Assembly: GCA_021788365.1 (NCBI GenBank)
Contig: JAJYKS010000001.1
Location: 70,113-134,112 of the forward strand
Reading direction: 5' to 3'
Origin: a bacterium
GTDB lineage: Bacteria; Patescibacteriota; Microgenomatia; UBA1400; UBA12108
DNA length: 64,000 bases
Positions 1-39,262 of the stretch are shown piece after piece. The translations under genes were made by a program, and so were the position numbers. How positions within the stretch are numbered: position 1 is the stretch's first letter; each line of letters begins with the position of its first letter. The notes under the pieces were generated by a model. It was given only the letters and a program-made list of their open reading frames with translations. It ran no database searches and had not been told where the DNA came from.

Positions 1-599
1 TCGGCGTCGAATTCGAGACTGGTGGGATCCACGACTGTCCAGGTATCGGTCGCAAGCACGGTGGCGCCGGGTGCGGTAACCGGCGAGGAAACCAAAAGCC
101 CGTTGAAGGGACTATAGATATACGACAGCTTGATAAGCAGGTCTTGGTATTCGACGTCCTTGACCGTGTTGTCGAGCGAGTATTGATTGTTTTCGAGGAT
201 ACGGCGCAACGTATTGTCGATACTATTGGCGTCTATGGCGGTTTGATTGTCGGCTTTCGTTTGGTCGAAGGTATTCAGCTGTTTTACGTACAGATTAAGC
301 TTTTCTTTGAGGGTATTTTGGAGGGTACGGGTGTCGAGACCGGCTAGCGTCTGTCCCGCCTTCACCGCGTCGCCCTCTTTCGCCCCTACATAGGTTACAA
401 GCCCACCGGCACCGAGGTGCAGATTCGCGATTTTCCCTGCTTGGACTTTGCCGGACAGCTCAACCACGTCGTCGATTTTGCCACGCGTAACTTTAACCGC
501 GTCGTATTGCACTACCGGTTTCCTGCCGAAGATGAGCCAGCCGATGGCGACCACTCCCGCAACTGCCACTGCCGAAAGGATATATTTCTTCTTTAGCAT
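1..599 (-). CDS. HlyD-family membrane-fusion / periplasmic adaptor protein, C-terminal part cut by window edge
   Basis: Minus-strand translation from the ATG at 597-599 gives MLKKKYILSAVAVAGVVAIGWLIFG..., a single N-terminal TM helix followed by a long coiled-coil and beta-rich region typical of HlyD/RND adaptor proteins. The frame stays open to position 1. Confidence 0.6.
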   Translation of the reverse strand, partial: MLKKKYILSAVAVAGVVAIGWLIFGRKPVVQYDAVKVTRGKIDDVVELSGKVQAGKIANLHLGAGGLVTYVGAKEGDAVKAGQTLAGLDTRTLQNTLKEKLNLYVKQLNTFDQTKADNQTAIDANSIDNTLRRILENNQYSLDNTVKDVEYQDLLIKLSYIYSPFNGLLVSSPVTAPGATVLATDTWTVVDPTSLEFDA

Positions 600-611
600 A
601 GAGTTTGTATT

Positions 612-1541
612 TTACCACGGAATGCGGAAAACCAGGCGGAGCAGAAGCGTGTGGAAGAGATAGATGGGGTATGACCATATGCCGAGCTGCACCAGCGGGC
701 GCCAGGACTTGAACGACCCCTCGCCAATGCAATGCGCGAGTGTAAAGAGTGCCACAATGGCGAACCCGGCGTAGACAAGGGTCCCTATCTCGGTAAATCG
801 CATGGCGATAATGGGGTCTACCCCGCTCCCCACAGCTTGAATGGCACCTGTAGCAACAAACAAAAAGGATACGGCCGTGGCTATGTAGAGACTACTACGT
901 GTTGCGCTTGATTGTGTGAGATGGCGATGGATACGGGGGAGGTGCATGCCGAGCACATAGTAGAAGATCCAAGTGAAAAACCAGCGGTATTGCTCCTGAT
1001 CGTTCCCGAGAACCGTTGCGTGTGCATAGAGCCACCACTCAAAAATAAAGGCGGCGGCGAGTGATATCCACGGCAGTTTCTCGACGAGCTTTTTTACCAA
1101 GGGAAAAAGGAGATAGAGCTCGAAGATCATGGGGACAAAATAGAGCTGGTAGTCGGCGCTACCCCGCACGAGTTGCAGCCAGAGCGGCCCGACATCCCCC
1201 AGTGCTTTCCACGAGGGGATAAAGAAAAAGATGAGGTTAAACAACAGGCTAGCGCCAATATAGAGCGGCAGTAATTTGCCCGCTTGGCGCTTGACGAAGT
1301 CCCAAAAATGGAACGGAACTCCCTGATATTTTTGCCAGAAACTATAGCCAGAGAGGGCAACAAAGAGGGGGACGGAGAAGCGGGAGAGTTGGTCCAGACC
1401 GATTGCGACCCACGACCAGCCGGATGAGGGATAGTAGTCGCCGTGGATACTCGAGAGTGTGTGGATTGCAAGAACGGCGAGTATGGCGAGACCGCGTAAA
1501 ATATTGTTGACGAACGCGTCGCGCGCGGTGGGTTTGGCCAT
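612..1541 (-). CDS. acyltransferase family 3 (OafA-like) integral membrane protein
   Basis: 309-aa ORF with about 10 hydrophobic helices; N-terminal motif ILRGLAILAVLAIH and overall layout match acyltransferase_3 family. Confidence 0.6.
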   Translation of the reverse strand: MAKPTARDAFVNNILRGLAILAVLAIHTLSSIHGDYYPSSGWSWVAIGLDQLSRFSVPLFVALSGYSFWQKYQGVPFHFWDFVKRQAGKLLPLYIGASLLFNLIFFFIPSWKALGDVGPLWLQLVRGSADYQLYFVPMIFELYLLFPLVKKLVEKLPWISLAAAFIFEWWLYAHATVLGNDQEQYRWFFTWIFYYVLGMHLPRIHRHLTQSSATRSSLYIATAVSFLFVATGAIQAVGSGVDPIIAMRFTEIGTLVYAGFAIVALFTLAHCIGEGSFKSWRPLVQLGIWSYPIYLFHTLLLRLVFRIPW

Positions 1542-1747
1542 ATCGGATTATTATACGGTGAAATGTGAGGCTACCAAAGGGAGCAATAATGAGTGTCGAG
1601 AAGGAGCGAAGAACCTTGAACCACCTGACGGGCTCTCAGATGCCATCCGTAAAAGCTGGGATAGCAGTATCCTCAAGAGCGATCTTTTTTCTCGAGAAGA
1701 GGACAGGGTCTTGACTTCCCGGACTTATAATAAGGCTAGTCTATCAT

Positions 1748-1984
1748 ATGAATACTAATACGTCGCACCAGATCAGCCAGCTAGCTACCCCACCGTTGAG
1801 TGCGAGTAGTGCGTCCGAAATTGCTACTACTCCCCCCTCTCCCATTACACGCTTAGTCCAGTCACTACTGACTGTGGATGTGCATGCGGCAGACGCGATA
1901 GCAAATGCAGTGAGCGTCGACAACGGGTCGGGTCAGCGTATCGAGCTTAGCCACGATACCCCTGGACCAGATTTCATTAAGTAA
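1748..1984 (+). CDS. hypothetical small protein (weak call)
   Basis: 78-aa ORF in a 470-bp intergenic gap; Ser/Ala/Thr-rich, no obvious RBS. Confidence 0.2.
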   Translation: MNTNTSHQISQLATPPLSASSASEIATTPPSPITRLVQSLLTVDVHAADAIANAVSVDNGSGQRIELSHDTPGPDFIK

Positions 1985-2013
1985 TTAAGAAGTAGTAGCT
2001 TGAACCAGTACAC

Positions 2014-2739
2014 TTATTTAGCCAATCTAGCCCTTCCCCCCACCATGACATATAGTCCCTCGAGATGCCGGGAATAGATCACCGAACCTTTTCCATGATG
2101 TATTTCGATAGGTTCAGGGGTGTTTTCCGGCTGTAGTTCCAGTGCTAAGAGCATACTTCCCGAGCCGTTCGCCTCGTCCTCTGGTATGCCCCAGTCTGGA
2201 GCAAACGTTCGCGCCCTGATGCTCGCCCCCTCTTTTATCCAAGCCCATGAGACAGTATGTTGCTTTGTGGCGGCTTGTTCTACTGTAATTGCCTCCACTT
2301 TAGCTGGTGATGCTAATTGTTCAACATTCCAGTGTGGTAGGTGAGTTTTGTTTGTCCTAACCCAGAGTAGGTTGTCTTCCTCAACCACCTTACTCACCTT
2401 GCCCATACTTAGGACCGTGTCGGTATGTATGTGAGATATGTTACGTGCGTACCAGGCAGCTCCGAGGATGGCGTGACCGGCAAAAGCTACTTGTTCTTGG
2501 GGGTTGTGGATGGTTACCCGGAGAGGGTTTAGCATGTCGACGAAGACTGACTCGCTATACCCCAGATCTATGGCAATCTCTTGCCTCTCGCCCATACTTA
2601 GCTTGTGGTCAAGGTCAATGACTATACCGACAGCGTTGCCATACTCATCATGCTCATCGACAAAGACGTTTACTGTATGTGATTCGTGGTTACTTGGCTG
2701 ATACGTCATATGTAAATAATACCAGTAGCTGCTGCTCAC
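2014..2739 (-). CDS. PhzF-family (phenazine-biosynthesis-like) isomerase
   Basis: N-terminal HTVNVFVDEHDEYGNAVGIV resembles the PhzF VDAFT..GNPAAVV signature; the two-lobed length fits. True start may be the internal Met (MTYQP) at about 2709. Confidence 0.55.
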   Translation of the reverse strand: MSSSYWYYLHMTYQPSNHESHTVNVFVDEHDEYGNAVGIVIDLDHKLSMGERQEIAIDLGYSESVFVDMLNPLRVTIHNPQEQVAFAGHAILGAAWYARNISHIHTDTVLSMGKVSKVVEEDNLLWVRTNKTHLPHWNVEQLASPAKVEAITVEQAATKQHTVSWAWIKEGASIRARTFAPDWGIPEDEANGSGSMLLALELQPENTPEPIEIHHGKGSVIYSRHLEGLYVMVGGRARLAK

Positions 2740-2829
2740 ACAATCCTGAATTCCAAGTGGTACAATTGCAACATATCAGCCACATAGGCCGCCACAAGCG
2801 GTCTTTTTTGTTATAAGGGGGTGATTTAC

Positions 2830-2970
2830 ATGAAAGATAAGATCAGAGAAAAGCTTTGCAGTGTATGTCGAGCTCAATATGATAATCATGTGCCGCTTTG
2901 GATATGCGCACGGTGCGTTAAAAAGGTTTTCGGCGAGAAAACACCTAAACGTACAACTAGTGAGCAGTAG
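2830..2970 (+). CDS. small zinc-ribbon protein (46 aa), absent from ORF track
   Basis: ATG at 2830 preceded by AAGGGGGTGA RBS; MKDKIREKLCSVCRAQYDNHVPLWICARCVKKVFGEKTPKRTTSEQ has CxxC...CxxC. Confidence 0.35.
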   Translation: MKDKIREKLCSVCRAQYDNHVPLWICARCVKKVFGEKTPKRTTSEQ

Positions 2971-3092
2971 AGAGTGGGATTACATACCAAGACACCAATT
3001 AGACTTAAATGCGTGACAAAAATAGTCCGTGTCGTTCTACCAGCATAAGATGTGATGCGCATGCCCATTGTCTTGTGCCGTGGCTTTTTAGT

Positions 3093-3635
3093 CTAGGTTT
3101 CTTTGTTTTTCTTGAGTTGTGTGCCGGAGGTTATGGGAGGCGATGGTATAAATGGGAGGGTGTCCTTTCCCTCCCAATGGAATAGTCCAAATAGACCACT
3201 AAGTTTCTTGCCCTTGTCGATCAGCTGGTCTAGGTACAAAGCAAGTATCCCGATACTTACAAGTGTAATGGATTCTTGAGATAGTTCCTTGCGATAGAAA
3301 ATGTCAAAACCGACGACAAGAAATATTACCGTTACAATTGCTTCCTTATATTTCATTAGTATCTGTAGGGGAATAAATACCGTCTGCACAATTTGTCCAT
3401 ATATCGGTGTTACCATGACAATTAGAGCTTCTACTGGTGACACTTTCATAGCGTTACGGTATTCCCCTGTGGGTGGATCGTTGCTTTCTGGTGGTTTCTG
3501 TTCGGTGATATATATATGTTTCATTTTTCCAAACCACTCGGGAGGAAATAGTGGCAAAATACTCAACAGCCCCAACCCTAGTGGAACCCAGTTGTTCATT
3601 AGAAAACTTATAAGCAACGCATTCCCGTTTACCAT
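3093..3635 (-). CDS. hypothetical integral membrane protein
   Basis: 180-aa ORF with 4 predicted TM helices; no recognisable family motif. Confidence 0.4.
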   Translation of the reverse strand: MVNGNALLISFLMNNWVPLGLGLLSILPLFPPEWFGKMKHIYITEQKPPESNDPPTGEYRNAMKVSPVEALIVMVTPIYGQIVQTVFIPLQILMKYKEAIVTVIFLVVGFDIFYRKELSQESITLVSIGILALYLDQLIDKGKKLSGLFGLFHWEGKDTLPFIPSPPITSGTQLKKNKET

Positions 3636-3716
3636 AATGGCTTTATTTTACCAGTATCGTCTATGCTCAGTTTTATTTTGGCTTGACATAGACCCACTAT
3701 ACTTACATAGGAGTTT

Positions 3717-4187
3717 ATGTCGAATATAGATTGGCAGGCTGCACGGACAAAGTACATAACTAGCGGGTGTACTCTTGAGGAAATTTCCCAAGACTTCGGG
3801 TGTGACCCTAGCACGGTCAGGCTTCACTCCGCGATGGATAGGTGGGTAGATGCTCGAGAGGAAGCGCAACAAAAGGCCAACAAAATCACTACAGAAAAGG
3901 CTGCCGAGGACTTTGCTGAGATAAACCTAAGGCATGCAGAGTACGGCCAATACCTCCAACACCAGGCTTTGGCTTCCCTGTTAGACAAAGAGCGTCCAGT
4001 AGCCCCTAAAACTTTCTCAGAGGCTCTCTCTGCCCTCCGCGATGGCGTGAGGATCGAACGATTGGCCCTTGGCATGGATGAGGACAAGGGGTCTAAGACA
4101 GCCTGTGAGGTCGTGTACGTGCCTCCAACGTGGTATAAGCCACCTTCTGAGCCTACTGAGGTAGACGAGCCAACGAAAGTTGCGTGA
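3717..4187 (+). CDS. phage terminase small subunit-like HTH protein (could alternatively be an RDF-like DNA-binding protein)
   Basis: MSNIDWQAARTKYITSGCTLEEISQDFGCDPSTVRLHSAMDRWVDAREEAQQKANK follows the Terminase_2/P27-type N-terminal pattern (W..A...Y..G.S..EIA..FGV..STV......W...R); acidic C-terminus. Confidence 0.45.
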   Translation: MSNIDWQAARTKYITSGCTLEEISQDFGCDPSTVRLHSAMDRWVDAREEAQQKANKITTEKAAEDFAEINLRHAEYGQYLQHQALASLLDKERPVAPKTFSEALSALRDGVRIERLALGMDEDKGSKTACEVVYVPPTWYKPPSEPTEVDEPTKVA

Positions 4188-4194
4188 CGGCTAT

Positions 4195-4962
4195 TTATTG
4201 AGCTACTGCAAAGTTCACCGTACTTAACCCCGAAATGGTGATCTCATCACCATTTGTTAGGCTTACAGAGACGCTTGGCACCCCACCGTACTTTGTGTCA
4301 CCGCCTAGTATCTCATTGTACGAGTCAGCTCCCGACACTATGAAGTTTCCACTGTCTCCAGTTCCAGGAGTAACCATGTACCTACCAGCAGCAATGTCTT
4401 CCCCCACAGTGAACGTGCCAGCATATAGCTTTACGGGGCCGTATGCCTTCACAAATGGCGTGGTAACGGGAGTAAAGGTTACTTTGCTTAGACCGGAAAT
4501 TTTGATGCTGTCACCACCGCTTACCTTAACTCGCACTTTTAATACACCGCCCGCAGCGCCGGCACTGCCCAAGATTTCATTGTATGAGTCGGCGCCAGAC
4601 ATGATGAAATTACCGCTTTGGCCAGCTCCTGGCGTCACGTCATATAAGCCTACTGCCACGTCAGTGCCTCCAGTAAACGTACCAGCCCCGATTGTTTTTG
4701 CCGTTCCTACTACCTGTCGCTCGGCTGGTTGATTCGAGGGAGAAGCCTGAGTCTCAGAGGATGTCGTGGAGTTATTTCCCGTCGCGTTCGTGCTTTTGTT
4801 TCCGGAGTTCCCAGAACTCGCCACCATGGAAATTAGGATTATTGCGATAATGCCGGTTATGATGGGGTGTCGGACAAACCAGATTCTTTGATCTGCTTGG
4901 CAGTGGGGACACTTCTTTGCCTTGTCGTCTATGTCCATACGGCAACTTTTACACTTCTTCAT
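4195..4962 (-). CDS. Zn-ribbon / single-TM anchored surface protein with two tandem ~80-aa beta-rich repeats
   Basis: Start at internal Met: MKKCKSCRMDIDDKAKKCPHCQ (CxxC..CxxC), then a TM helix (IITGIIAIILISMVA), an S/T/N-rich linker, and two repeats sharing G.Y.VTPG.G.SGNFI.SGADSYNEILG....V.VS...GD.I.ISGLS.V.F. The repeat is visible at the DNA level at roughly 4200-4455 and 4456-4716. Confidence 0.5.
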   Translation of the reverse strand: MKKCKSCRMDIDDKAKKCPHCQADQRIWFVRHPIITGIIAIILISMVASSGNSGNKSTNATGNNSTTSSETQASPSNQPAERQVVGTAKTIGAGTFTGGTDVAVGLYDVTPGAGQSGNFIMSGADSYNEILGSAGAAGGVLKVRVKVSGGDSIKISGLSKVTFTPVTTPFVKAYGPVKLYAGTFTVGEDIAAGRYMVTPGTGDSGNFIVSGADSYNEILGGDTKYGGVPSVSVSLTNGDEITISGLSTVNFAVAQ

Positions 4963-5094
4963 ACTCTGTCCCTCCAGGCAGTACCTGCTATATATTGAGC
5001 GTAGCAAATTGCTATCTATAGTCAACACCTTTGCTTAAATGAGACCTTTATGTGACAGTGAGCTAGATTTCTCCGGAATCGATGTTGATTCTTC

Positions 5095-5679
5095 CTAGAA
5101 TAGCGGATGCGCGTTTTGGTCTAGATAGACGCTTATAGTCATATTTATCCCTGGAGGTACTCCTTGGAGCATAAACTTTATGCTAGACGGATTTAATGGC
5201 CAGGACTTAATAATTTCTTGGAACAGCTCGTCCACGTCAGCTAGATGAATTTCGTATACATTTCCTTGTATTTTGCGATCCTCCTCCCACTTTTGTTTTG
5301 GCATGACACTGGTTATTAGCGAAACGCTGTCACCGTTTTTATAGTTGGGGTAACGTATCTCTTCCCACCTGTGGATGTCTTTAACAGTTGCGTCAAATTT
5401 GGATAGTGACTGTTTGTCTGTCGTCCGCTTGTATTCTTCCCATAGCTTAGGTAAGTTGTGTCCAAACTTCTCGTATAGTTCTTCGGGAGTATATGCGCTT
5501 TCCTTGTAGAGCAACCTACCTTTTATTAGCATCTCGATGCCATGATGGAAAAGATTGCCGGCAACTGGAGATAGCGAGCAGAGATTGGCAAATCTTCCCG
5601 ATATGTAGTACTGAACGCCTATGCGCAGGTACTCACTCCATCTGGTGGACAGATACTTCACGCCATTCTTTGACCTCAT
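5095..5679 (-). CDS. hypothetical cytoplasmic protein (possibly HEPN-like)
   Basis: 194-aa ORF. N-terminal GRFANLCSLSPVAGNLFHHGIEMLIKGRL is vaguely reminiscent of HEPN R-x(4-6)-H helices; no firm family assignment. Confidence 0.35.
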   Translation of the reverse strand: MRSKNGVKYLSTRWSEYLRIGVQYYISGRFANLCSLSPVAGNLFHHGIEMLIKGRLLYKESAYTPEELYEKFGHNLPKLWEEYKRTTDKQSLSKFDATVKDIHRWEEIRYPNYKNGDSVSLITSVMPKQKWEEDRKIQGNVYEIHLADVDELFQEIIKSWPLNPSSIKFMLQGVPPGINMTISVYLDQNAHPLF

Positions 5680-5756
5680 ATTCTCCCCCTTTAGTGCTAT
5701 TTTCTCACGATAGGTGGGGTGGTTTACAAGTACTGGGGCTATAATGCGGTCAAAGT

Positions 5757-7307
5757 ATGACTATGAATACGGATGAGGTCGACGTCACAAAACTTCGATA
5801 TGTCCTTTATGCCAGGAAAAGTACCACCGACGAATCACGTCAGGTACGATCTATTCCGGACCAGATACGTGAGTGCAAGGAGCTGGTTACTAGGTTAGGT
5901 TTGCACATCGTAGGGAAGCCCCTACAGGAGACTCAATCCGCTAAACTTCCTAGGAAGCGACCTATTTTCCGACAAATGATTTCCGACATTAAACAAAAGA
6001 AGTATGACGGCATCCTCGCTTGGAATCCGGACCGTTTAGCTCGTAACATGCTGGAGGGTGGCGAGATTATTGACTTGATAGATCAGGGCATAATTAAAGA
6101 CCTTAAGTTCGTCACGCACCACTTTACCCCTGATGCCAATGGCAAAATGCTGCTTGGTATGGCCTTTGTTTTGTCAAAACAATATAGTGATGACCTCTCG
6201 CAAAAGGTCACTCGAGGAGTTCGGGCTAAATTTGCTGAGGGAAAGGGATCTGCACCCAAGCACGGTTACGTTCGGGATAAAGATGGTTACTATCGACCAG
6301 ACGGCAAAAACCATCGTTTGATAAAAGATGCTTGGCATATGAGGGTTGAGGGAAAATCCATCCTCGATATTGTTGCACATATGAACCGGGAAGGTTACGG
6401 GAGGAAGGTTAAGAAAACCGGAAAACAGGTAAAGATGAGTAAGCAGACGCTTAGTAGCATCTTCCACGACACGTTTTACTACGGAGTTTTAGCGCAGGGG
6501 GGAGAGACTATCGACCTTAGGAGCCAATACGACTTCGCTCCAGCGTGTACTGAAGCTGACTATAATGCTGTCCAGCAACTTGGCTATAGGAGAATTAAAC
6601 CGTCAAAGCCTCATACAACAGCTTTTTATCCCCTACGTCTTATGGTTTTGTGTTCGCATTGTGGACGAACTATGCGGGTAGGACCTTCAACGGGTAGGCA
6701 GAAGCGTTACCTTTACTTCCGTTGCGATAACCCGGAATGCAGTCGTAGCCCACGCTCAATCCGGTCAAAGATCGTGTTTGACTTTATCTACGGCTTACTT
6801 GCGGACGGATTGCCTCTAACTAAGGCGGATTATGACGAATATTCTAAAGCCCTGATCGCCCAGGCGGACGCGAAACGCCAAGAGCTGACTGTCGAGCTTC
6901 ATAAGCTACAGGCACAGTTAAAGGTTGTAAAGGCAGAGATACGTGATCGATCACTCAAAATCGTTAAGTTCGACGAGAAGAGCATCCCGTATAAGGAAAA
7001 CCTCCGTCGCATAGATGAGTTAGACGGACAAAAACATGACGTTCTCAGCAGATCTACGGCCATTGCACAACAATTAACCGACCCGGAATCTGACCGCCTT
7101 ACTATTGAGCAGTTCTTGAACCTAGCAAAAAATGCTGGTGCTATCGTTAAAAGTGGAAATGCCGTGGCAAAGGACACAATTTGCCGGTTGATTTTCTTGA
7201 ACCTGACTGTAGACACCGAGAAAGTCACGTCATATCAATTAAAAGAGCCATTCGCTACCCTACTGAAAAGCCGTAAAATCCTACCTGGTCGGGGTGCTGG
7301 GAATTGA
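5757..7307 (+). CDS. large serine recombinase (resolvase/invertase N-domain, recombinase domain, zinc ribbon)
   Basis: LRYVLYARKSTTDESRQVRSIPDQ catalytic-Ser resolvase motif; recombinase domain; C-terminal zinc ribbon CSHCGRTMRV...YFRCDNPEC with coiled coil. The last 22 nt overlap tRNA-Pro in antisense. Confidence 0.85.
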   Translation: MTMNTDEVDVTKLRYVLYARKSTTDESRQVRSIPDQIRECKELVTRLGLHIVGKPLQETQSAKLPRKRPIFRQMISDIKQKKYDGILAWNPDRLARNMLEGGEIIDLIDQGIIKDLKFVTHHFTPDANGKMLLGMAFVLSKQYSDDLSQKVTRGVRAKFAEGKGSAPKHGYVRDKDGYYRPDGKNHRLIKDAWHMRVEGKSILDIVAHMNREGYGRKVKKTGKQVKMSKQTLSSIFHDTFYYGVLAQGGETIDLRSQYDFAPACTEADYNAVQQLGYRRIKPSKPHTTAFYPLRLMVLCSHCGRTMRVGPSTGRQKRYLYFRCDNPECSRSPRSIRSKIVFDFIYGLLADGLPLTKADYDEYSKALIAQADAKRQELTVELHKLQAQLKVVKAEIRDRSLKIVKFDEKSIPYKENLRRIDELDGQKHDVLSRSTAIAQQLTDPESDRLTIEQFLNLAKNAGAIVKSGNAVAKDTICRLIFLNLTVDTEKVTSYQLKEPFATLLKSRKILPGRGAGN

Positions 7308-7359
7308 ACCCAGGCCTGACGCACCCCATGCGCCAATTCTACCGTTAAACCACACCCCG
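7286..7359 (-). tRNA. tRNA-Pro (anticodon GGG)
   Basis: Reverse complement is CGGGGUG-UG-GUUU..GAAU-U-GGCGC-AUGGGGU-GCGUC-AGGC-CUGGG-UUCAAUU-CCCAG-CACCCCG-A-CCA. The acceptor stem is a perfect 7 bp, the T arm is canonical, U33 and G37 are present, and CCA is encoded. D stem is weak (G.U, U-A, U-A, U.G). Coordinates may be off by 1. Confidence 0.75.
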
Positions 7360-7372
7360 AATAGAACAGGTG

Positions 7373-8014
7373 TTATTGTAGCATGAGGTAGGTGTGAATT
7401 TCCTGGAGATTGTCTATCGCACGCCCACCAGCTGCCCGAAAAACGTCTTTCGCCGTGGTATGTCCTGCAATTGCTAGAAACTGTATTCCTGCCATTCCTG
7501 CAGCTTGGAAATCAGTGAGTGCGTCTCCTATGTATAGTAATTCATTACGCACTATTCCACGGTCACTAAAATACCTGCATATCGGGTCAAAAACCCGGGG
7601 ATCGGGCTTGTGCACCTCTGTATCATCGGCGGTCTGAATGTACAAAAATGATCCTTGATCCACTCCTGCCTCTTCTAAGGCGGCATGGGTTAGTCGTCTG
7701 TTGGCTGCAGTCACGATTCCAAGTGGCAAGCGTCTGCACAGTTCGGCTACGACTGCGTGTGTTTCTGGGTATGGTGGTATGGGAAAATCACTGGTGATTG
7801 TGTAGTAATTGTTGAGGATGTTCTCAAGTTTATCGATATTGCCGTAGATACCTGCGACCATCTCCTCGAACGGTTTTCCCCAATGTTTATCGATATCTTC
7901 ATCTGTTAGCACTAGGTTGTAGAACTTTTTGGCTGCGTGTTTGTGAGCTGCGTATTTGGCAAGACGCGTTTGGATGAGCGTGTCGTCCATGTCGAAAACA
8001 ACGGCTTTTACCAT
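7373..8014 (-). CDS. HAD-superfamily hydrolase
   Basis: MVKAVVFDMDDTLIQT (DxDxT motif I), later GD motif. Confidence 0.7.
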   Translation of the reverse strand: MVKAVVFDMDDTLIQTRLAKYAAHKHAAKKFYNLVLTDEDIDKHWGKPFEEMVAGIYGNIDKLENILNNYYTITSDFPIPPYPETHAVVAELCRRLPLGIVTAANRRLTHAALEEAGVDQGSFLYIQTADDTEVHKPDPRVFDPICRYFSDRGIVRNELLYIGDALTDFQAAGMAGIQFLAIAGHTTAKDVFRAAGGRAIDNLQEIHTYLMLQ

Positions 8015-8041
8015 GAATATTAGTGTAGCAGGGAGCGCAAA

Positions 8042-8635
8042 TTAGCCGAGACGCTTGGCGACGTCGTCCCAATTCACCACACTCCACCAGGAGTCGACGT
8101 ATTTGCCACGATCGTTGCTGTAGTCGAGATAATACGCATGCTCCCAGACATCAAGGACGAGGATGGGCGTTGTCCCAACTACGCCTAATAGGTTGTGGTT
8201 CTGGATTTCGACAATGTGGAGATCTTCTTCATCCTTGACGAGTGCCGCCCAGCCAGATCCCTCAACTGCCTTGGCTGCACCGGCAAATTCTGCCTGGAAT
8301 TTCTCAAATGAGCCAAACTGTTCCTCGAGTTTTTTGAGGAGAGCTCCATCCGGCATGTTATTTTTCGCAGCTTTCTTCATGTTGGTCCAGAAAATACTGT
8401 GCAACTTGTGACCTGAGAGGTGAAATGAAAGGTCGCGCATCACGGCTTTGTAGTCTATTTCGAGTCCCGTTCCCTCGCGAAATTTCTCTAGCCTATCCAT
8501 GGCAGCGTTGGCACCCGTCACATAGGCAAGGTGGTGACGCGTGTGATGGAGTTGCATAATTTTTTTGGAGATCACCGGTTCCAGGGCATCGTACGCATAG
8601 GGAAGATCAGGAAGCTCTATCCGTTTCTGTTTCAT
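8042..8635 (-). CDS. Fe/Mn superoxide dismutase
   Basis: PDLPYAYDALEPVISKKIMQLHHTRHH...DVWEHAYYLDY Sod_Fe N and C signatures. Start moved to the Met at 8633-8635, which has an AGGAGG RBS; the upstream ORF extension is rejected. Confidence 0.85.
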   Translation of the reverse strand: MKQKRIELPDLPYAYDALEPVISKKIMQLHHTRHHLAYVTGANAAMDRLEKFREGTGLEIDYKAVMRDLSFHLSGHKLHSIFWTNMKKAAKNNMPDGALLKKLEEQFGSFEKFQAEFAGAAKAVEGSGWAALVKDEEDLHIVEIQNHNLLGVVGTTPILVLDVWEHAYYLDYSNDRGKYVDSWWSVVNWDDVAKRLG

Positions 8636-8669
8636 AACTCCTCCTTTTATATGTCTAGTATAGCACACT

Positions 8670-9998
8670 TCAGGAGGTATGTGCCCGAACGCGGTCCCAA
8701 TGCGGCCCTCGGCGGCAGAGCAGTGACGCATCTTTTCTATTTGCAAGTAGCGCTTCTACCGCTCGCTCTAAAAGAATGTTGTTTTGTGATCCTTTTACCA
8801 GTATGTAGGTCTGTTCTTTTACACGACCTTCCACGTACCTTATTAGGTCTTTCATGCGGGTAAAGTGGTGGACTGGGAAGCGTCGCCTCTCGAGTATTGG
8901 TAGTGTGTAGGTGAGTGTCTCCTTGCCAAACAGTATCGCTTCATCGGCTGATCGTATGAGCTCATCGGCAAGTTCTTTGTGGGCAATTTTTGTCTGCATT
9001 CCTAGCTCTCGCATATCACCTACTATCGCTATCTTGTGTGCGCGACCAGCAATCTTGGCAAAGTGTATAAGCGATTCACGTATCGTGTCGGGAGATGCAT
9101 TGTACGAAGAATCTATCACGGTACTGCCTTGCACACCTCGAAACATGCGAAAGCGACCGGCTGGAGCGCGAAAGCGTGAGAGGGCCACAATACTTTTTTC
9201 TGTTGGTACCCCCACTGCTGCCGCACCTGCAATGGCCGCGAGAAACGAGTATGCATAGTGCTCAGGGAGCGGATCGGGGAGGGCAAGTTCGTACGCTGCA
9301 TTTTGATAGGTAAATTGTAGGCAGAATCCACGCTTCCCGGTCGAGACGTGAGTTATATGGAATGTCGACCCTGTGCGTCTACCATAGGTTAACAGCCGTG
9401 CAGTAATATCTCGCGTTTCTTTGGCTATATATGCATCATCTTTATTTACGATAGCCACTCCCGTTGGATCGATTCCTTTCACGAGTACCATCTTTTCTTT
9501 GGCGATCTCATGGCGGATCTTTTCACCCCGTCTTTCGGGATTTTTGTCTTTGACGAGAGCGTCAAATGCCGCTCCGTGTACGAGGCCTGCGTTTAGCACT
9601 ATACCAACTTGTGGACGGATTATAGAGAGGAGATATCTCATATTTTTGGGAGGCAATGGCGAGTCTATCCCCATCTCTACTACGTAGTAGTCGAAGTGGC
9701 GCCAGTTGATAAGTATCATGAGTGGTGCAGCAAGCACAACTCTTGCCCAATCGAGTAGTGTGTAGGTGTGCATGGATAGTCCGAGCATATTGAGAGCAAT
9801 TCCTGACTCAGAATTTGCATTTATGGTGTGCTTGACTATCCCCTTTTCATTCAGGATGGTGACCAGTGCGAGGCGTGTTGTTGTTTTGCCTGCCGAGCCG
9901 GTTATCCCCAGTACAATCGCGTGACGGTTTTTTAGCTGTTGTATTTTTGCAAACGTCCGAAGATATCCCAGGATGCACAAGACAAGTATTTTTTTCAT
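8670..9998 (-). CDS. Mur ligase family protein, MurF-like (UDP-MurNAc-peptide D-Ala-D-Ala ligase)
   Basis: GITGSAGKTTT P-loop of Mur ligases, central and C-terminal Mur ligase domains. Confidence 0.6.
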   Translation of the reverse strand: MKKILVLCILGYLRTFAKIQQLKNRHAIVLGITGSAGKTTTRLALVTILNEKGIVKHTINANSESGIALNMLGLSMHTYTLLDWARVVLAAPLMILINWRHFDYYVVEMGIDSPLPPKNMRYLLSIIRPQVGIVLNAGLVHGAAFDALVKDKNPERRGEKIRHEIAKEKMVLVKGIDPTGVAIVNKDDAYIAKETRDITARLLTYGRRTGSTFHITHVSTGKRGFCLQFTYQNAAYELALPDPLPEHYAYSFLAAIAGAAAVGVPTEKSIVALSRFRAPAGRFRMFRGVQGSTVIDSSYNASPDTIRESLIHFAKIAGRAHKIAIVGDMRELGMQTKIAHKELADELIRSADEAILFGKETLTYTLPILERRRFPVHHFTRMKDLIRYVEGRVKEQTYILVKGSQNNILLERAVEALLANRKDASLLCRRGPHWDRVRAHTS

Positions 9999-9999
9999 T

Positions 10000-11361
10000 T
10001 TATTGTCCGCTATTCAATTCTGCTGCTAGTGTACTCGCCGTATTTGCATCGGTTGTGTCTGCAGTAATCCGCGTTTTCTCGTCCTCGGTAAGCCAAGCAC
10101 GTTTTTGCATAACACCGGCCACTTCCTGTGCTAGTGCTAGTCGGCGTCGGAGGATTGTTAGGAGCTCCTGCAGCTTTCCCTGATCTACTCGACTGTCACC
10201 CACTGCTCCTTCCCAACTTTTTATGACATTTTGCAAACTGGTGACTGCGTCTGTCCAGCTTTGTACCGTCGATGTGTCATATGTTGCTGGGATATAGCCA
10301 CCAAGCTCACCAACTATAACCTGTGTGGGACAACCATTTACCACTTTGTCTATGGCGCCAACACCGATGTCTTGATAGTTTTTGTTTAGCACCTGTGAGG
10401 CTGTGTCTTTAAATGCTAAGAGGTTTTGCATGAGTTCTTCGGCGGTGTAGTGGCCATGACTCACAAATTCGCCCCCCACGATATTACTATAGCCAGCTAC
10501 CTTCTCTGCCTCTTGCTGCGATGATACTGAGCCTGCAGCGCGTAATGACGCGGCGTGTTCTAGCGTTTTGTTTGCCGACAGCGCAGCTATATTGTGACTC
10601 TTTCGCGCTGAGTCCAGGAGCGCGTAAAATGCCGATACGTTAAGCGTGGGTTGTCCCTCGAGTAGCGCGTCTTTTGAGGTGTCGCGCCACAATTTCTTGT
10701 ACAGGTCTTGGTCGCTGTAGGGCAAGACAAAGCTGATATCTTCCGCACGAATGAGCCCCAGCTCATACCGTGAGTCTGAGGAGATTTTGCGATTGTCGCC
10801 CAAGACAAGATACTCTCCCTGCGGGACTACTACCTTTTGACAGTCTGTGATGTTGGTACCGCCATATGTCGAGCGCGGGGCGGCAATGTATGGCTCAGAT
10901 AGGAGTAAACCATTACGGTAGACAAAGCCGTCGCGAAATTCTATGGTGTCTCCTGGCGTACCAATGACTCGTTTGATAAATCCTGCATCGGTCGGTTGTC
11001 CGTCTTTTTGCAAGATGGCGCGCGTGGCACTATTTTGGAATGCAACCATATCGCCAAAGCCGATCGTGCGCCTAAGATAGGTTTGACCGAAGACCGTAAA
11101 TCCAGTGAAATCGCGATACATGAGTGGTGCACTTCTGTATTCTTCAATGACTCTCTTTGATGGGTCTTCCGGTCCCCCGTCGGCTTTATCCCAAAAAAGT
11201 GATGGATACATGGATCCGGTACCTACAACGGAAACGGAGACCGGCACCAGCCCTACAGATTTTTCTATCTCATTTATGCTGATAGCGACGATGGGCATGA
11301 CCGCAGCGAGAATTATCGCCGTCGGAATAAATCGCAAGAGCTTGCCGAGTATTTTTTTCAT
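10000..11361 (-). CDS. signal peptidase I (S26) fused to a C-terminal CAP/YkwD-like domain
   Basis: N-terminal TM helix; GTGSMYPSL (SPase box B with catalytic Ser); GDNRKISSDSRYELGLI (box E). An extra ~230-aa C-terminal region carries GHYTAEEL...NKNYQDIGVGAI, like CAP/YkwD motifs. Confidence 0.7.
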   Translation of the reverse strand: MKKILGKLLRFIPTAIILAAVMPIVAISINEIEKSVGLVPVSVSVVGTGSMYPSLFWDKADGGPEDPSKRVIEEYRSAPLMYRDFTGFTVFGQTYLRRTIGFGDMVAFQNSATRAILQKDGQPTDAGFIKRVIGTPGDTIEFRDGFVYRNGLLLSEPYIAAPRSTYGGTNITDCQKVVVPQGEYLVLGDNRKISSDSRYELGLIRAEDISFVLPYSDQDLYKKLWRDTSKDALLEGQPTLNVSAFYALLDSARKSHNIAALSANKTLEHAASLRAAGSVSSQQEAEKVAGYSNIVGGEFVSHGHYTAEELMQNLLAFKDTASQVLNKNYQDIGVGAIDKVVNGCPTQVIVGELGGYIPATYDTSTVQSWTDAVTSLQNVIKSWEGAVGDSRVDQGKLQELLTILRRRLALAQEVAGVMQKRAWLTEDEKTRITADTTDANTASTLAAELNSGQ

Positions 11362-31965: not shown

Positions 31966-32040
31966 GGCCTCATCGTCTAGCCCGGTCTAGGACAGCGGGT
32001 TCTCATCCCGCTAACTTGGGTTCGAATCCCAATGAGGTCA
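31966..32040 (+). tRNA. tRNA-Glu (anticodon CUC)
   Basis: GGCCUCA-UC-GUCU-AGCCCGGUCUA-GGAC-A-GCGGG-UUCUCAU-CCCGC-UAAC-UUGGG-UUCGAAU-CCCAA-UGAGGUC-A; near-identical architecture to E. coli tRNA-Glu; no encoded CCA. Confidence 0.85.
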
Positions 32041-33703
32041 CAAGTAGCGACTGATCACGATTGAACTGCTCATTTAGGGCGATATATTCGGCTAAATTGG
32101 GTGTTCCAGAAATCAGATCGCTGTATGCTGGTGCAGTGTTAAAAAGTAGGCCAAAGTATATGGCTCGATTGATTGGATTTGAGCCTTCTAACAGCAATTT
32201 ATCGAGGTGTTCCAGAAAATATTTGATGGTTGCTGCGACTTCTTCTATATTGATATCTTTTTCGGGATCTTGAGCCTTTTTAAGGCTTAAGTCCTCGATT
32301 TGTTTTTCGATCTTGAGGAGATCCTCTTCCATAAACCGGATAGCGGTTTCTGAAGAAAGCATCTTGATTTTGTCGGCAATAAGCCTGGCCGACGTTTGCA
32401 GCTCTAGGATTTTTTGGTCAATATGAAGTTTATCTTTGTTTATCTCAGCCTGCCTTCTATTCCATTCCTTGACAACCTCCTCTTTGAACCGCTCGGCATA
32501 TTTAGGGGTTACATGGAGGCGTTTAACGAAGTTTAAGATCGTTAAATCAAATTCTTTTTTGGATACTCTGAAATAATGACCCCGTTTATTACAGTGATAG
32601 GCTGGGTAGTATTTTCCCATTTTACCGCGTGAGGCGCTGCCAAATAGAGGTTTTTTGCACTCGGGGCACATAACATAACGTTTATAGGGAAAATCGGGAT
32701 TTCGCACACCCTTTTTGACCAAATATCGGGGAGGAATATTGCGATAGATCTTGACGCTATCGTCTTCTTCAACAATCGTTACTTTCCCGCGGTTGGCCCG
32801 GTTAAACATATCGATAGTGACAATCCCGTCGTATTTGCCCTTTACTGGTTGTCCTTGTGTCCATTTCTCGACGTTTATGCCGGCGTATATCGGTCTTTGC
32901 AAATAGCGCCAAAGCTGCTTAATATGAAGTTTCTTACCGCCAAGTTTGCCGATTACCTGCTTTTTATCCTCATGAGATCGAATAAGGCGCGTTCGTGATC
33001 GAAAGGCAAGTTTATTCACCTCATCGACTATTTGCTCGTCGGTGAGTGTCCCTTGGATACGCAATTCAAACATTTTTAGTATCCAGTAGGACTCTTCTGG
33101 ATGCGGCTTGAGGATTATCCGTTTTCCGTGAGGAGTCTCAACCTTCTCATTAACATAACCAAAAGGCGCCTGACGTGCCCGATACCCAAGCCTGACGTAG
33201 CGGATTTCGGCGCCGATCATCCGACTCATGATATCGCGCATTTCGTCTTTTGCCCGTTCTGCTTCAAGAATTTCTGCTTTTTTGGTAGGGCTATAAACGC
33301 TCCAATTGTATTTGACACCGAGGTGTTCAAGCGTATTTACTTCTTGAGAGCCAATAATTCCGTAGATATCGACGAGTCTGACGCCGTAATTCGTCAGCTG
33401 CATTTTCAAAAAGTCATAGAAATAGGAGCCTCCGCGAGTGAAACGGTCAATCGATTTGATAATAAAAACATCGATGTGATTCTTGGGATTTTTGCAGTAG
33501 TCGATGGCCTCCTGGATCGGCTGCTGTTCTTTTGAGGCAGATTCCATAAATACAAAATATTTTTTGATCTGAAGGTTGTGTGTCTCAGCGAACCGATCAA
33601 TTTGCTCCTGTTGAGCTTGCGGAGAATCTCCTTGTAAACCCTGTTTGACTGATGAAACGCGGATTGCAGCGACTGCATTTTCCCGCTTTATTTCCATTTC
33701 CAT
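32003..33703 (-). CDS. large serine recombinase
   Basis: AIRVSSVKQ catalytic Ser motif, recombinase domain, zinc ribbon CPECKKP...YHCNKRGH and coiled coil; the last 38 nt are antisense to tRNA-Glu. Confidence 0.85.
   Translation of the reverse strand: MEMEIKRENAVAAIRVSSVKQGLQGDSPQAQQEQIDRFAETHNLQIKKYFVFMESASKEQQPIQEAIDYCKNPKNHIDVFIIKSIDRFTRGGSYFYDFLKMQLTNYGVRLVDIYGIIGSQEVNTLEHLGVKYNWSVYSPTKKAEILEAERAKDEMRDIMSRMIGAEIRYVRLGYRARQAPFGYVNEKVETPHGKRIILKPHPEESYWILKMFELRIQGTLTDEQIVDEVNKLAFRSRTRLIRSHEDKKQVIGKLGGKKLHIKQLWRYLQRPIYAGINVEKWTQGQPVKGKYDGIVTIDMFNRANRGKVTIVEEDDSVKIYRNIPPRYLVKKGVRNPDFPYKRYVMCPECKKPLFGSASRGKMGKYYPAYHCNKRGHYFRVSKKEFDLTILNFVKRLHVTPKYAERFKEEVVKEWNRRQAEINKDKLHIDQKILELQTSARLIADKIKMLSSETAIRFMEEDLLKIEKQIEDLSLKKAQDPEKDINIEEVAATIKYFLEHLDKLLLEGSNPINRAIYFGLLFNTAPAYSDLISGTPNLAEYIALNEQFNRDQSLLVTSLGFEPKLAG
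32026..32041. repeat. attL-side direct repeat (within tRNA-Glu 3' end and the integrase 3' end)
   Basis: Exact 16-mer atcccaatgaggtcac shared with 49887-49902. Confidence 0.6.
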
Positions 33704-33710
33704 ATCGTTT

Positions 33711-33914
33711 TTAGGTTACTTTTAACGTCCCCTGTCTTTGCATTTCCATGAGCCGGTCGACAATTACATTGGCTAAAATGTGTATCCGTTCCTGTGTGGA
33801 GAGTGATGACGCCACTAAACGTGTAAGATCGGCATTTTTCTTGTTTGCGGATGAAGAAATAGTATATACTTGGGTATTGGAGGCTAAAAGTTTATCAGTA
33901 TTAGACATAGTCAA
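33711..33914 (-). CDS. small hypothetical protein next to the integrase (possible RDF; speculative)
   Basis: 67-aa ORF, 8 nt from the integrase start. Confidence 0.3.
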   Translation of the reverse strand: MTMSNTDKLLASNTQVYTISSSANKKNADLTRLVASSLSTQERIHILANVIVDRLMEMQRQGTLKVT

Positions 33915-34002
33915 TGATTATTAACTATCCGTATACTGTTTATTTTAGACTCATCTTTTATGCTTGTCAAGAGCAATTAAGTGATTAAAGAAAAAAGCAA
34001 AT

Positions 34003-34227
34003 ATGTTAGGAAAACACAATCAAAAAGTATTAACCGCTTTAGGAGAAAAGCTAAAAAAGGCTCGTAAGAAGACTGGTTTAACCCAGGAGAAAGTAGCCGA
34101 AAAAGCGGGAATTCACGTCAATTTCTATGCAAGGGTTGAACGGGGTGAAGAAAATCCATCATTTGAGGTGTTAAATAAGATTGCCAAAATTTTGAAAGTT
34201 AAATCTTCGAATATCCTTCCAATTTAG
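34003..34227 (+). CDS. XRE-family HTH transcriptional regulator
   Basis: LKKARKKTGLTQEKVAEKAGIHVNFYARVERGEENPSFEVLNKIAKIL is a canonical Cro/C1 HTH. Confidence 0.7.
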   Translation: MLGKHNQKVLTALGEKLKKARKKTGLTQEKVAEKAGIHVNFYARVERGEENPSFEVLNKIAKILKVKSSNILPI

Positions 34228-34281
34228 CTAGTGTTTGATCGATCCTTTTAGTCTTTATTTCTTGTGAGTCTTCAGTTTTTG

Positions 34282-34963
34282 TTACTCGTAATATTCATTT
34301 TTTAAATCGAATCCATTTTCATCAATAACGAGATATTGGCCTATTCCATATTGAACCATTCCTGTATTAATAAAGTTTAAATTATTATCAATCTCGGCTA
34401 AATGTGTGTGTCCAAAAAGATAGAAATTATTTTTAGTCTGTTTATTTTTAATAATATTTTTGAGTTCTCTGTTCTGTTTTTCATATAGGAGTTTTAAGAT
34501 AAATTTATCTGATAACCTTATAATTTTCCCCGCTATTTTTTTAAAATACTTCGTTAACAACCTAGGAGGTCTCAGAATATTATCTTCGTCATTGAGGGCG
34601 TTATCAAGTTTGCTTAAAGATATATCATAATGATTTCCATGTTCTATGTGATAGGTCATATTTCCTATTTGAAGACGATATTTTTCTACTTGAATATCAG
34701 AGAAAAGTGATGTTTTTTTTATCCGTTAATGATTTTTTATCATGATTTCCATAAATATAGACTGTCTTCTTCGTTTTTAATAAAGGAAATAACTTTTTCC
34801 ATGGGGAATTAATAAAATCTGAAAAGCTGCAGATATAGGAATCCCAAAAATCACCGTTAATAATGACTCTGTCCACCTTAGAGATTATTCTTTTGAGAAA
34901 ATTGAATTTTTTTTCATCAAATTCTTCGTAGAGATGAGTGTCTGATAATACTATTGTTTTCAT
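34282..34963 (-). pseudogene. calcineurin-like metallophosphoesterase split by a frameshift
   Basis: Upstream ORF (34697-34963) has VLSDTHL...GDFWD...GNHD. Downstream ORF (34282-34659) has GHTH...G. The break coincides with a T9 homopolymer at about 34727-34735. Confidence 0.55.
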
Positions 34964-35033
34964 AAAGCTAATTATAGCAAGATTTCGCCCTTTCTCTTGA
35001 ATATCTGGTATTTTCTAGTACAATCTGTGCAAT

Positions 35034-37907: not shown

Positions 37908-38016
37908 AAAAAGTGTCCGCGTGTAGACACTAAAATAAACAAATAATAAGGCTAAAGTATCGATAATTACATCCTTATATCTTTATATATACATATAACT
38001 GGATACAATTAACTAT

Positions 38017-38790
38017 ATGTCTATTACTAATTGCTCAAAATCAGAACAACGAATTATTTCCTTTCTTTACTCATTCCGTTATTTACAAATTAAACAGATA
38101 CAAAAGTTATTTGATCATAAATCACCCAATCGAATTAAAATCTGGCTTAAACATTTACTGACAAATCATTTTATTTATGCCATTACAAACAAAAAAGACA
38201 GAACGAAACCGTATATTTATTGTTTGGATCAAAAAGCAAGCAAAATAGTAAGTGAGGTGATAAAAAAGGAAGATTTGGATAAAAGTTTTACCAATCGGAT
38301 ATACAAGGAAAAATCGTACAGCAGGAAGTTTATCAACAGAAACCTTTTTATCGTTGACTGTTATTTATATTTCTTAAAACATAAAGAAAAAGATTCAACG
38401 ATAAACTTTTTTACGAGACAAGATCTGTATGGCTATTCCTATTTCCCAAAACCCTTGCCAGACAGCTATATCGATGAGGAGGTAAAAACCGGACATAACA
38501 GATATTTCCTTGAGGTTTTTAGCTATAACGTTCCTATCAAATATCACTTTCAAAGAATTGAATACTATTTTGATTACTTTGATGATGGGCAGTGGAAAGA
38601 AAATACCAATGGCGCACCATTCCCGTCGCTTCTGATCGTGTGTGCCAATAACCAGTTAAAAAGAAAAATTTTCTTTCATGCAAAATCACTATTGGAACGA
38701 TCGTATGATGAAATTAGTGTCTTTCTAGCCACGGCCGACAAGATTACTCGGAATGATGAGAATGTTTGGGATGAAGTTAGAGTTGACTGA
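38017..38790 (+). CDS. replication-relaxation family protein (candidate relaxase)
   Basis: N-terminal wHTH QRIISFLYSFRYLQIKQIQKLF typical of Replic_Relax proteins of mobilizable elements. Confidence 0.55.
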   Translation: MSITNCSKSEQRIISFLYSFRYLQIKQIQKLFDHKSPNRIKIWLKHLLTNHFIYAITNKKDRTKPYIYCLDQKASKIVSEVIKKEDLDKSFTNRIYKEKSYSRKFINRNLFIVDCYLYFLKHKEKDSTINFFTRQDLYGYSYFPKPLPDSYIDEEVKTGHNRYFLEVFSYNVPIKYHFQRIEYYFDYFDDGQWKENTNGAPFPSLLIVCANNQLKRKIFFHAKSLLERSYDEISVFLATADKITRNDENVWDEVRVD

Positions 38791-38835
38791 TGAAGTAGAC
38801 CAAAAAATCGCAGATAAGAGTGATTAAGAGTTATA

Positions 38836-39228: not shown

Positions 39229-39262
39229 ACTTGGCTTTTATACCAAAGTTGACCTTTTCGGC

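Follow-up and report, generated by a model that had tools for sequence, protein, structure and literature searches.

We analyzed a 64,000-nucleotide (nt) stretch, hereafter the window, of a Microgenomatia genome of the phylum Patescibacteriota (GenBank assembly GCA_021788365.1, contig JAJYKS010000001.1, positions 70,113 to 134,112). In this window, two genes predicted to encode large serine recombinases (LSRs) run at their 3′ ends into the antisense strands of a tRNA-Pro and a tRNA-Glu gene, respectively. Each overlap is very probably the attL junction left by a circular element that integrated at the tRNA gene's 3′ end through its own LSR. The two elements are referred to below as element 1 (at tRNA-Pro) and element 2 (at tRNA-Glu), and the homologues of their integrases as the Pro family and the Glu family.

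Two tRNA genes were detected in the window by ARAGORN, namely tRNA-Pro(GGG) on the minus strand (7286-7359) and tRNA-Glu(CTC) on the plus strand (31966-32041). Rfam placed the former at 7289-7359 (RF00005, full length, 54.2 bits) and the latter at 31966-32040 (55.8 bits). The integrated (truncated) form of the LSR of element 1 is an open reading frame (ORF) of 516 amino acids (aa) on the plus strand (5757-7307). It overlaps tRNA-Pro by 22 nt, or by 19 nt when counted to the Rfam end, and terminates at a TGA (7305-7307) within the antisense T-loop AATTGAA. Read in reverse complement, its terminal codons correspond to the 3′ strand of the acceptor and the T-arm of tRNA-Pro, and the final four codons plus the stop consist of host tRNA-Pro antisense sequence. 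The integrated form of the LSR of element 2 is an ORF of 566 aa on the minus strand (32003-33703), which overlaps tRNA-Glu by 38-39 nt. Its stop codon, the complement of TCA at 32003-32005, overlaps the anticodon, opposite the anticodon loop, and its terminal codons are the reverse complement of tRNA-Glu including the variable loop and anticodon stem. Here the final seven codons plus the stop are host tRNA-Glu antisense, and five more codons come from the recombination core.

The antisense overlap at both tRNAs, and the identity of the final recombinase codons with the complement of the tRNA ends, had been proposed from the letters alone (hereafter the sequence-only reading) and were confirmed at both sites. 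Mis-called tRNAs do not account for them, as the two independent tRNA callers, ARAGORN and Rfam, concur at both loci with full-length models. The coordinates proposed earlier also hold in general, except that the start at 7278 falls a few bases outside tRNA-Pro.

Element boundaries and recurrence of the overlap

Contigs of the same population with empty integration sites delimited both elements. Element 1 (1599-7291; 5,693 bp) is absent from the contigs L170 and L173, in which a HAD gene, tRNA-Pro(GGG) and an acyltransferase gene directly adjoin each other. The BLAST pieces of L170 correspond to window positions 1-1598 and 7288-10797 and overlap each other by exactly 4 nt, which sets the attR and attL copies of the core GTCG at 1595-1598 and 7288-7291, respectively. 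The attL copy coincides with nucleotides 74-71 of tRNA-Pro (CGAC on the tRNA strand), i.e., the final two bases of the acceptor stem followed by the discriminator and the first base of the trailer, and no flanking identity extends beyond these 4 bp. The tRNA-Pro(GGG) gene in the window is of host origin except for its core and 3′ trailer. The empty gene of L170 reads …CCCCGA-CTCA, in which CCA is not encoded, versus …CCCCGA-CCAGG, with an encoded CCA end, in the integrated state. Numerous Pro-family loci were classed as "TGGTCG" (CCA-encoding) or "TAGTCG". Direct-repeat searches for the left end of element 1 found nothing, as a shared core of 4 bp is too short for them, and a scan of the Pro-family loci for 26-nt degenerate repeats yielded no signal (15.7 matches versus 15.0 in the reverse-strand control). 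Two candidate left junctions near a terminator-like hairpin within the element (2783-2810, plus strand), namely TGGT at 2757-2760 and GGGGTG at 2819-2824, were rejected in favor of the junction given by the empty-site contig.

Element 2 (32042-49902; 17,861 bp) is a low-GC block recognized by its drop in GC content, by empty sites and by its Pfam matches, and it is bracketed by a perfect repeat of a 16-bp core, ATCCCAATGAGGTCAC. The attL copy (32026-32041) runs from the T-loop end to nucleotide 74 of tRNA-Glu, just beyond the discriminator, leaving the tRNA complete after integration, and the attR copy (49887-49902) was identified both as an exact repeat and by BLAST against empty sites. In three empty-site contigs from other assemblies or samples (L182, L183 and L185), a NUDIX gene, tRNA-Glu and an SDR gene follow one another without anything between them, and the BLAST pieces of these contigs against the window overlap by exactly the 16-nt core.

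Occupied and empty sites coexist, and the flanks adjacent to the junctions are 98.5-99.9% identical. In sample ERZ27237587, element 1 is missing from the GGG site (L173) and occupies tRNA-Pro(CGG) instead. Element 1 was found at 99.3% identity at this second tRNA gene, with attL in L001 and attR, next to a different host flank, in L177; the integrase there ends in GAEN and a stop versus GAGN and a stop in the window. Likewise, L131, L132 and L134 have identical element-side sequence, each beside a different tRNA-Pro gene. The assembly GCA_021839925.1 (L169, L182) carries the tRNA-Pro element next to an empty tRNA-Glu site and GCA_027372535.1 (L168, L181) has both sites occupied, so the two elements come and go independently in the population. 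The window is 100% identical to contig DAHXIW010000001.1 of the latter assembly over the two stretches compared (14.6 kb; L181). At two further loci (L143, 608-640; L162, 2366-2572), extra 11-12-nt copies of tRNA 3′ ends lie tens to hundreds of bases outside attR, the attR junction of L143 having been inferred by eye and that of L162 being only a candidate. These copies may be scars of earlier integrations or tandem arrays.

The overlap is by no means unique to this genome, since it is shared by most of the assessable loci in a survey of homologous recombinases. Eighty loci were gathered for each family, from GTDB species-representative genomes for the Glu family (65 assessable) and from JGI metagenome contigs for the Pro family (74 assessable). 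The integrase 3′ end overlaps an antisense tRNA or transfer-messenger RNA (tmRNA) gene in 56/65 and 65/74 of them, respectively, an outcome in line with the recurrent architecture suggested by the sequence-only reading. Glu-family targets were mostly tRNA-Glu (19), Gln (14) and Lys (13), with a few others, and Pro-family targets were tRNA-Pro (43), Leu (14), Met (4), tmRNA (3) and Val (1). The overlap ranges from 20 to 569 nt. Among the 240 homologues listed, nearly all C-termini are antisense-tRNA peptides such as GFEPR, GIRTxx and SRGAGN followed by a stop, the first two representing two reading frames of the T-arm.

Some loci showed particularities of their own. In L102, L114 and L124 the Pro-family integrase adjoins the 3′ end of the tmRNA gene (ssrA), and the C-termini read …GGDGGS followed by a stop or GGDGGN…. 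In the Glu-family locus L006 (2080-2350), GATTGTGACCCCAGAGGGAT occurs twice, about 70 nt apart, right after the integrase, and an intact tRNA-Glu lies 160 nt past this duplicated att-like sequence. In 15/80 Glu-family and 6/80 Pro-family loci, the contig stops at the integrase 3′ end or no more than a few dozen bases away from it. This suggests that assemblies break at polymorphic att sites, so that island finders would overlook such elements.

The integrases and their attachment sites

Sequence profiles and structural models indicate that both tRNA-overlapping ORFs are LSRs. The Resolvase domain (PF00239) was matched with E = 2e-21 in the Pro integrase and 1.6e-10 in the Glu integrase, and the catalytic residues R20/S22 of the Pro family and R15/S17 of the Glu family do not vary across 25-46 sequences. 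The Recombinase domain (PF07508) scored 28.6 bits in the Pro integrase, above the cut-off, and 18.8 bits in the Glu integrase, just below the cut-off of 21.1; precomputed PF07508 matches are present in many Glu-family homologues. A zinc ribbon was recognized in the Pro integrase (PF13408, Zn_ribbon_recom, 26.1 bits) with the invariant cysteines C299, C302, C323 and C328, and its AlphaFold2 (AF2) model contains long predicted helices at residues 356-440. The Glu integrase, with no Pfam zinc-ribbon match, has the invariant cysteines C346, C349 and C371 and helices at 400-477, and its AF2 model displays an alpha/beta recombinase-type domain in an LSR-like architecture. Foldseek comparisons, which covered the Pro integrase model, matched full-length LSR-att complexes (9y66, 9dxh, Bxb1 9iu2, PhiC31 9tep and 4kis) with E-values of 5e-20 to 6e-10 over about 550 columns, at an identity to solved LSRs of only 12-17%. 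The Glu-family profile found no sequence match among PDB chains.

The sequence-only reading had proposed that the two elements belong to one lineage using different tRNA targets, and this proposal was not supported. The two integrases share 19% identity by BLASTP (E = 0.17), and their homology emerges only at the profile level (probability 96.9%, 22% identity), where it is restricted to the catalytic, recombinase and zinc-ribbon regions. The elements also differ in cargo, size, core length (4 versus 16 bp), crossover position and tail architecture. By their sequences, the integrases represent two separate families, each abundant among Patescibacteria, rather than one close lineage. More than 1,000 database homologues were found per family at about 55-70% identity, and the named sources are Patescibacteria (WWE3, Woesebacteria and Microgenomates). 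Beside many genomes titled as Patescibacteria, many metagenome-assembled genomes with a Glu-family integrase are titled as Gammaproteobacteria, Pseudomonadales, Methanobacterium, Micrarchaeota or Limisphaerales; the unexpected labels probably stem from wrongly named or contaminated bins and not from the real host range. A scan of viral contigs (IMG/VR) yielded no member of the Glu family and only relatives of about 30% identity to the Pro family, which are not recognizable as phage integrases.

To describe the sites of the Pro family, logos were drawn from 22 distinct attR and 40 distinct tRNA-Pro attL junctions aligned on GTCG. The P arm has the sequence GTCG-AGNAGGAGCGANNAANCTTGAAC, and CTTGAAC spans +17 to +23 in the 22 P arms; in element 1 this arm of attP occupies 1599-1623 on the plus strand, with the conserved motifs AGCGA at 1605-1609 and CTTGAAC at 1615-1621. 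In the 40 tRNA-side B arms, CTTGAAC lies at +12 to +18, i.e., 5 bp nearer the core than in attP, and there it is the antisense T-arm, made of the last T-stem base and the first six T-loop bases. The same 5-bp outward shift between attP and attB was described for the zinc-ribbon motif of the LI integrase by Rutherford et al. (PMC3783163). These patterns suggest that the zinc-ribbon domain of the Pro family reads the CTTGAAC motif of the T-arm and that the 2-bp crossover would sit inside GTCG. The host flank (B′) carries no information in the logos and is apparently not read specifically. The LSR half-site model finds support in the Pro family only, because the Glu arms show neither clear symmetry nor the 5-bp shift.

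Exchange of the integrase C-terminus

Empty-site contigs locate both crossover cores (7288-7291 for Pro and 32026-32041 for Glu) within the integrase ORFs, and no stop codon stands ahead of the crossover in either of them; therefore attP lies inside the ORF. The sequence-only reading had placed attP within the recombinase 3′ end and had proposed that integration rebuilds both the tRNA and the recombinase C-terminus. The position of attP and the completeness of the tRNAs after integration held up, but the C-terminus is swapped rather than rebuilt. In the mechanism that we propose, the circular element recombined within its core (GTCG or the 16 bp) at the tRNA 3′ end, in a reaction presumably catalyzed by the LSR itself, and the tRNA gene was preserved intact through integration. 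The integrase ORF now continues into the antisense strand of the tRNA and ends at the first stop encountered there, i.e., a TGA in the antisense T-loop for Pro and a TGA opposite the anticodon loop for Glu. In the Pro family, the last ~50 codons lie at the opposite end of the element, and they adjoin the rest of the gene only when it is circular or in a tandem (attP-like) arrangement.

In the Pro integrase, integration swaps a conserved 48-aa tail for GAGN and a stop. The detached 3′ segment of the gene, which encodes this tail plus its stop, lies at 1599-1758 on the plus strand in frame with the crossover, and joining position 7291 to 1599 in a reconstruction of the circle lengthens the ORF by 48 aa, to 564 aa versus 516 aa when integrated. 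Ten in-frame tail segments, the one in the window included, were found at the far ends of related Pro elements by tblastn and by eye, and a hidden Markov model (HMM) was built from these and the C-terminus of P0240 (11 sequences). At E<1e-3 this HMM matched 28 loci, all on the integrase strand and upstream of or contiguous with the gene, and none on the opposite strand. The 26 distinct tail sequences start at the crossover codon, measure 47-53 aa, and share a near-invariant Trp and a terminal Tyr-x-Tyr. In the closest pairs, the ratio of nonsynonymous to synonymous substitution rates (dN/dS) is 0.09-0.47. Contiguous full-length ORFs of the Pro family were found in P0240 (558 aa), L142 and L144, the first of which sits within mobile-element DNA and not beside a tRNA. 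In the AF2 model computed for the full-length Pro integrase, confidently predicted elements extend to residue 504 and no further, and the predicted local distance difference test score (pLDDT) of the tail is <50. Integration of the Pro element splits the gene, and the tail is lost while, as modeled, all confidently folded domains are kept.

We also considered the tail as an independent gene using the conserved AGGAG of the P arm as its ribosome-binding site, and rejected this because the only nearby start, a TTG, is out of the conserved frame. At four loci (L100, L106, L122 and L096), the integrase is followed by a P-arm-like GTCG-N16-TAGAACC or CTCGAACC with a tail of just 2-5 aa, and in L096, L100 and L122 a proper tail segment lies some 2-3 kb upstream. 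These loci look like tandem elements in which the tail of the neighbor has decayed.

In the Glu integrase, the core is followed by FEPKLAG and a stop in the integrated state versus the 16-aa WFDGLTIIIPMYPRQV and a stop in the circular form, as reconstructed from positions 49837-49886 on the minus strand; the circular form would thereby measure 575 aa. No conserved counterpart of this 16-aa tail was found in attP-like relatives, whose tails are short and mutually unrelated, and residues 552-566 of the AF2 model, past the final confident helix, have pLDDT <50. Because the exchanged Glu tails are short and not conserved, the overlap in this family probably just follows from the packing of attP into the end of the gene, and no function is evident for it.

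For the Pro family, truncation may lower or alter the activity of the integrase and so stabilize the integrated state or bias directionality, a tentative proposal drawn by analogy with IntP and IntX of the myxophage Mx8, which we would place somewhat short of an even chance. It is likewise conceivable, although we lean slightly against it, that the Pro integrase gene is a built-in state sensor. In that case the tailed enzyme would be made only from the excised circle, and the tail would control integration and excision or the stability of the protein. If true, gene topology would act as a switch of directionality or commitment, replacing or supplementing a recombination directionality factor. 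As a corollary of the state-sensor reading, recognition by the Pro integrase would fall almost wholly on the tRNA acceptor/T-arm half-site. Convergent transcription of the tRNA over the integrase 3′ end may also matter.

On the other hand, the overlap could be a neutral by-product of a compact element that keeps attP linked to its integrase, the appended peptide being without function in either state. This agrees with the short and mutually unrelated attP-like tails of the Glu family, with tRNA-encoded tails that vary with the position of the first antisense stop (hence overlaps of 20 to 569 nt), and with the predicted disorder of both integrase tails. However, the detached Pro tail keeps its frame, its length, the near-invariant Trp and the Tyr-x-Tyr ending across the 26 distinct sequences, and its low dN/dS in the closest pairs would be unexpected for neutral read-through, so that we regard this explanation as rather unlikely. 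That the elements are immobile fossils, with decaying overlapping ORFs that merely record an old event, would fit the lack of recovered circular forms and the lack of recognizable replication or transfer genes in element 1. Yet both integrase ORFs are intact with conserved catalytic residues, occupied and empty sites coexist between nearly identical flanks, and one element stands in two different tRNA-Pro genes of closely related populations, all of which makes a fossil origin very improbable.

It is more improbable still that another recombinase (an unrecognized tyrosine integrase, or homologous recombination) carried out the integration, with the serine recombinase as a passenger resolvase or invertase. 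Although the Glu island, with its identical 16-bp core, recalls tRNA islands of the tyrosine type and several island ORFs had no Pfam match, no Phage_integrase match was obtained in any scanned ORF of either element, and a serine recombinase is the gene adjoining the tRNA in 121/139 loci. Moreover, a 4-bp core without flanking identity is typical of serine recombinases and not of tyrosine or homology mechanisms, and the P and B arms display the LSR-specific 5-bp shift. To an artefact, i.e., wrongly called tRNAs, a chimeric assembly or an ORF extended mechanically, we give next to no weight. ORF calling was indeed purely mechanical and many related contigs terminate at the integrase 3′ end, but the two tRNA callers agree on full-length models, the junctions recur across independent assemblies and samples, and contig breaks at the integrase end are expected at a polymorphic att site.

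Several points nevertheless weigh against integration by the LSRs as proposed here, or against a role for the Pro tail. Recombination has so far been inferred from sequence, and any effect of truncation on function is conjectural. A terminal-overlap search among the whole-contig loci recovered no circular contig, and neither an attP junction nor a circular contig turned up for element 1 or 2. In the Pro family, the P′ and P arms are not mirror images of each other. The 16-bp core of the Glu element is long for an LSR, and its attP and attB, when scanned for palindromes, revealed no convincing symmetry center; they also show no clear 5-bp shift. Concerning the Pro tail, dN/dS is saturated in distant pairs and has an overall median of 0.69, and the model holds no confident tail structure, in a region where the alignment is shallow and includes only two tail-bearing sequences. 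Finally, of the 48 loci for which 3 kb or more of sequence upstream was available, only 22 showed the tail; those without it may simply be larger elements.

Element cargo, related systems and implications

Besides its integrase, element 1 carries a PhzF-like gene along with several small genes of unknown function, and Pfam scans of its ORFs recognized no replication or transfer genes. Downstream of the hairpin at 2783-2810, an ORF of 46 aa (2831-2971) with a strong ribosome-binding site encodes a CxxC…CxxC zinc ribbon, and it is a possible candidate for a small accessory factor, e.g., a directionality factor. Element 2 encodes a T4 coupling protein, i.e., a TraG/VirD4-like ATPase (35034-37907, Pfam), a relaxase-like Replic_Relax protein (38017-38790, slightly below the Pfam cut-off), a mer operon, and BlaI/BlaR1-like, DsbA-like, PadR, PLD and GIY-YIG proteins, next to several ORFs without a Pfam match; no full type IV secretion set was recognized in the Pfam scans. 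The mercury-resistance cluster (39695-42378) comprises a MerA-like oxidoreductase (a pyridine-nucleotide disulphide oxidoreductase), MerT, an HMA-domain protein and an ArsR-type regulator, and is notable cargo for a reduced genome of the Patescibacteria type. A backbone of integrase, helix-turn-helix, coupling-protein and relaxase genes is also present in the complete WWE3 RAAC2 genome, where the comparison covered a 10-kb flank around the homologue and the far end of the island lies beyond it.

In their domain order (catalytic, recombinase, zinc-ribbon and coiled-coil) and, for the Pro integrase, in their fold, these enzymes resemble the characterized LSRs of A118/LI, Bxb1 and PhiC31. The Pro family also shares with them a very short core, here of 4 bp, and a zinc-ribbon-type motif lying 5 bp nearer the center in attB. 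Unlike the characterized LSRs, the families described here target tRNA and tmRNA 3′ ends instead of protein-coding or intergenic sites, attP is located inside the integrase ORF, and the host-side B′ arm is not conserved. Myxophage Mx8 likewise integrates into a tRNA gene, that of tRNA-Asp, but its Int, a tyrosine recombinase, uses a long common core, whereas here the enzymes are serine recombinases and the Pro core has 4 bp. As in our elements, attP of Mx8 lies inside the integrase coding sequence (Tojo et al. 1996, as cited in PMC4383910). Archaeal SSV-type "suicidal" integrases also hold the site inside the ORF and have the gene split to opposite ends of the element, although those are tyrosine enzymes disrupted by the split (PMC7253208), whereas here about 50 aa are detached and the folded domains stay whole.

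With the tRNA islands described by Islander and TIGER, our elements share an intact tRNA plus a distal att copy, a tRNA-proximal integrase, and tmRNA genes among the targets. Islander islands, however, use tyrosine integrases. The displaced tDNA fragment measures 16 nt in the Glu island and 4 nt in the Pro element, where it is invisible to repeat searches. Mycobacteriophages with integration-dependent immunity offer another parallel, in that attP lies in a gene and integration alters the C-terminus of its product. In that system, described by Broussard et al. in 2013, attP is reportedly within the repressor gene, the integrase is a tyrosine recombinase and integration removes a C-terminal degradation tag; in contrast, the gene concerned here encodes a serine integrase and not a repressor. 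This form of immunity is named in PMC4929511. Tycheposons of Prochlorococcus are, like our elements, small cargo elements at tRNA genes, of which a minority (27/937) carry a large serine recombinase (bioRxiv 10.1101/2020.12.28.424599). They differ in using overwhelmingly tyrosine recombinases and in occurring in other hosts, and no antisense overlap or split integrase is described in the available portion of that preprint.

The sequence-only reading had called tRNA targeting unusual for serine integrases, and the literature agrees. In the Islander study of 2015, only tyrosine integrases were known to target tDNAs, and the integrases of Mx8 and SSV were noted to extend across attP (PMC4383910). 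The TIGER study of 2020 found 14 of 297 serine-integrase islands in t(m)RNA genes, an association not previously reported for which experimental proof was wanted (PMC7192596), and a provirus survey of 2026 still states that serine integrases prefer coding sequences (PMC13626063). By text count, "tRNA" does not occur in the large LSR discovery paper (PMC10083194). Full-text literature searches, with subscription literature outside their scope, returned no description of such systems of a serine recombinase and a tRNA gene in Patescibacteria, or candidate phyla radiation, genomes. The chemistry appears to be that of a standard LSR, the tRNA target class is unusual for LSRs, and an att site within the integrase gene was previously documented for tyrosine integrases.

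These results counter the generalization from surveys that serine integrases avoid tRNA genes, as two large families do little else. They also bear on the question of why tyrosine rather than serine integrases favor tRNA genes, since the T-arm apparently serves as the zinc-ribbon motif of the Pro family. Because the shared core of the Pro family is only 4 bp long, repeat-based island finders miss such elements. The split-gene arrangement is a candidate route for the control of integrase activity. Serine integrases are widely used as tools of genome engineering. If the half-site recognition proposed for the Pro family is true, enzymes of this kind might find a target in any genome that contains a matching tRNA. 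An integrase whose attB amounts to the 3′ half of a tRNA plus an unconstrained flank would have natural landing sites in many genomes, including those of bacteria of the candidate phyla radiation, which are hard to manipulate.

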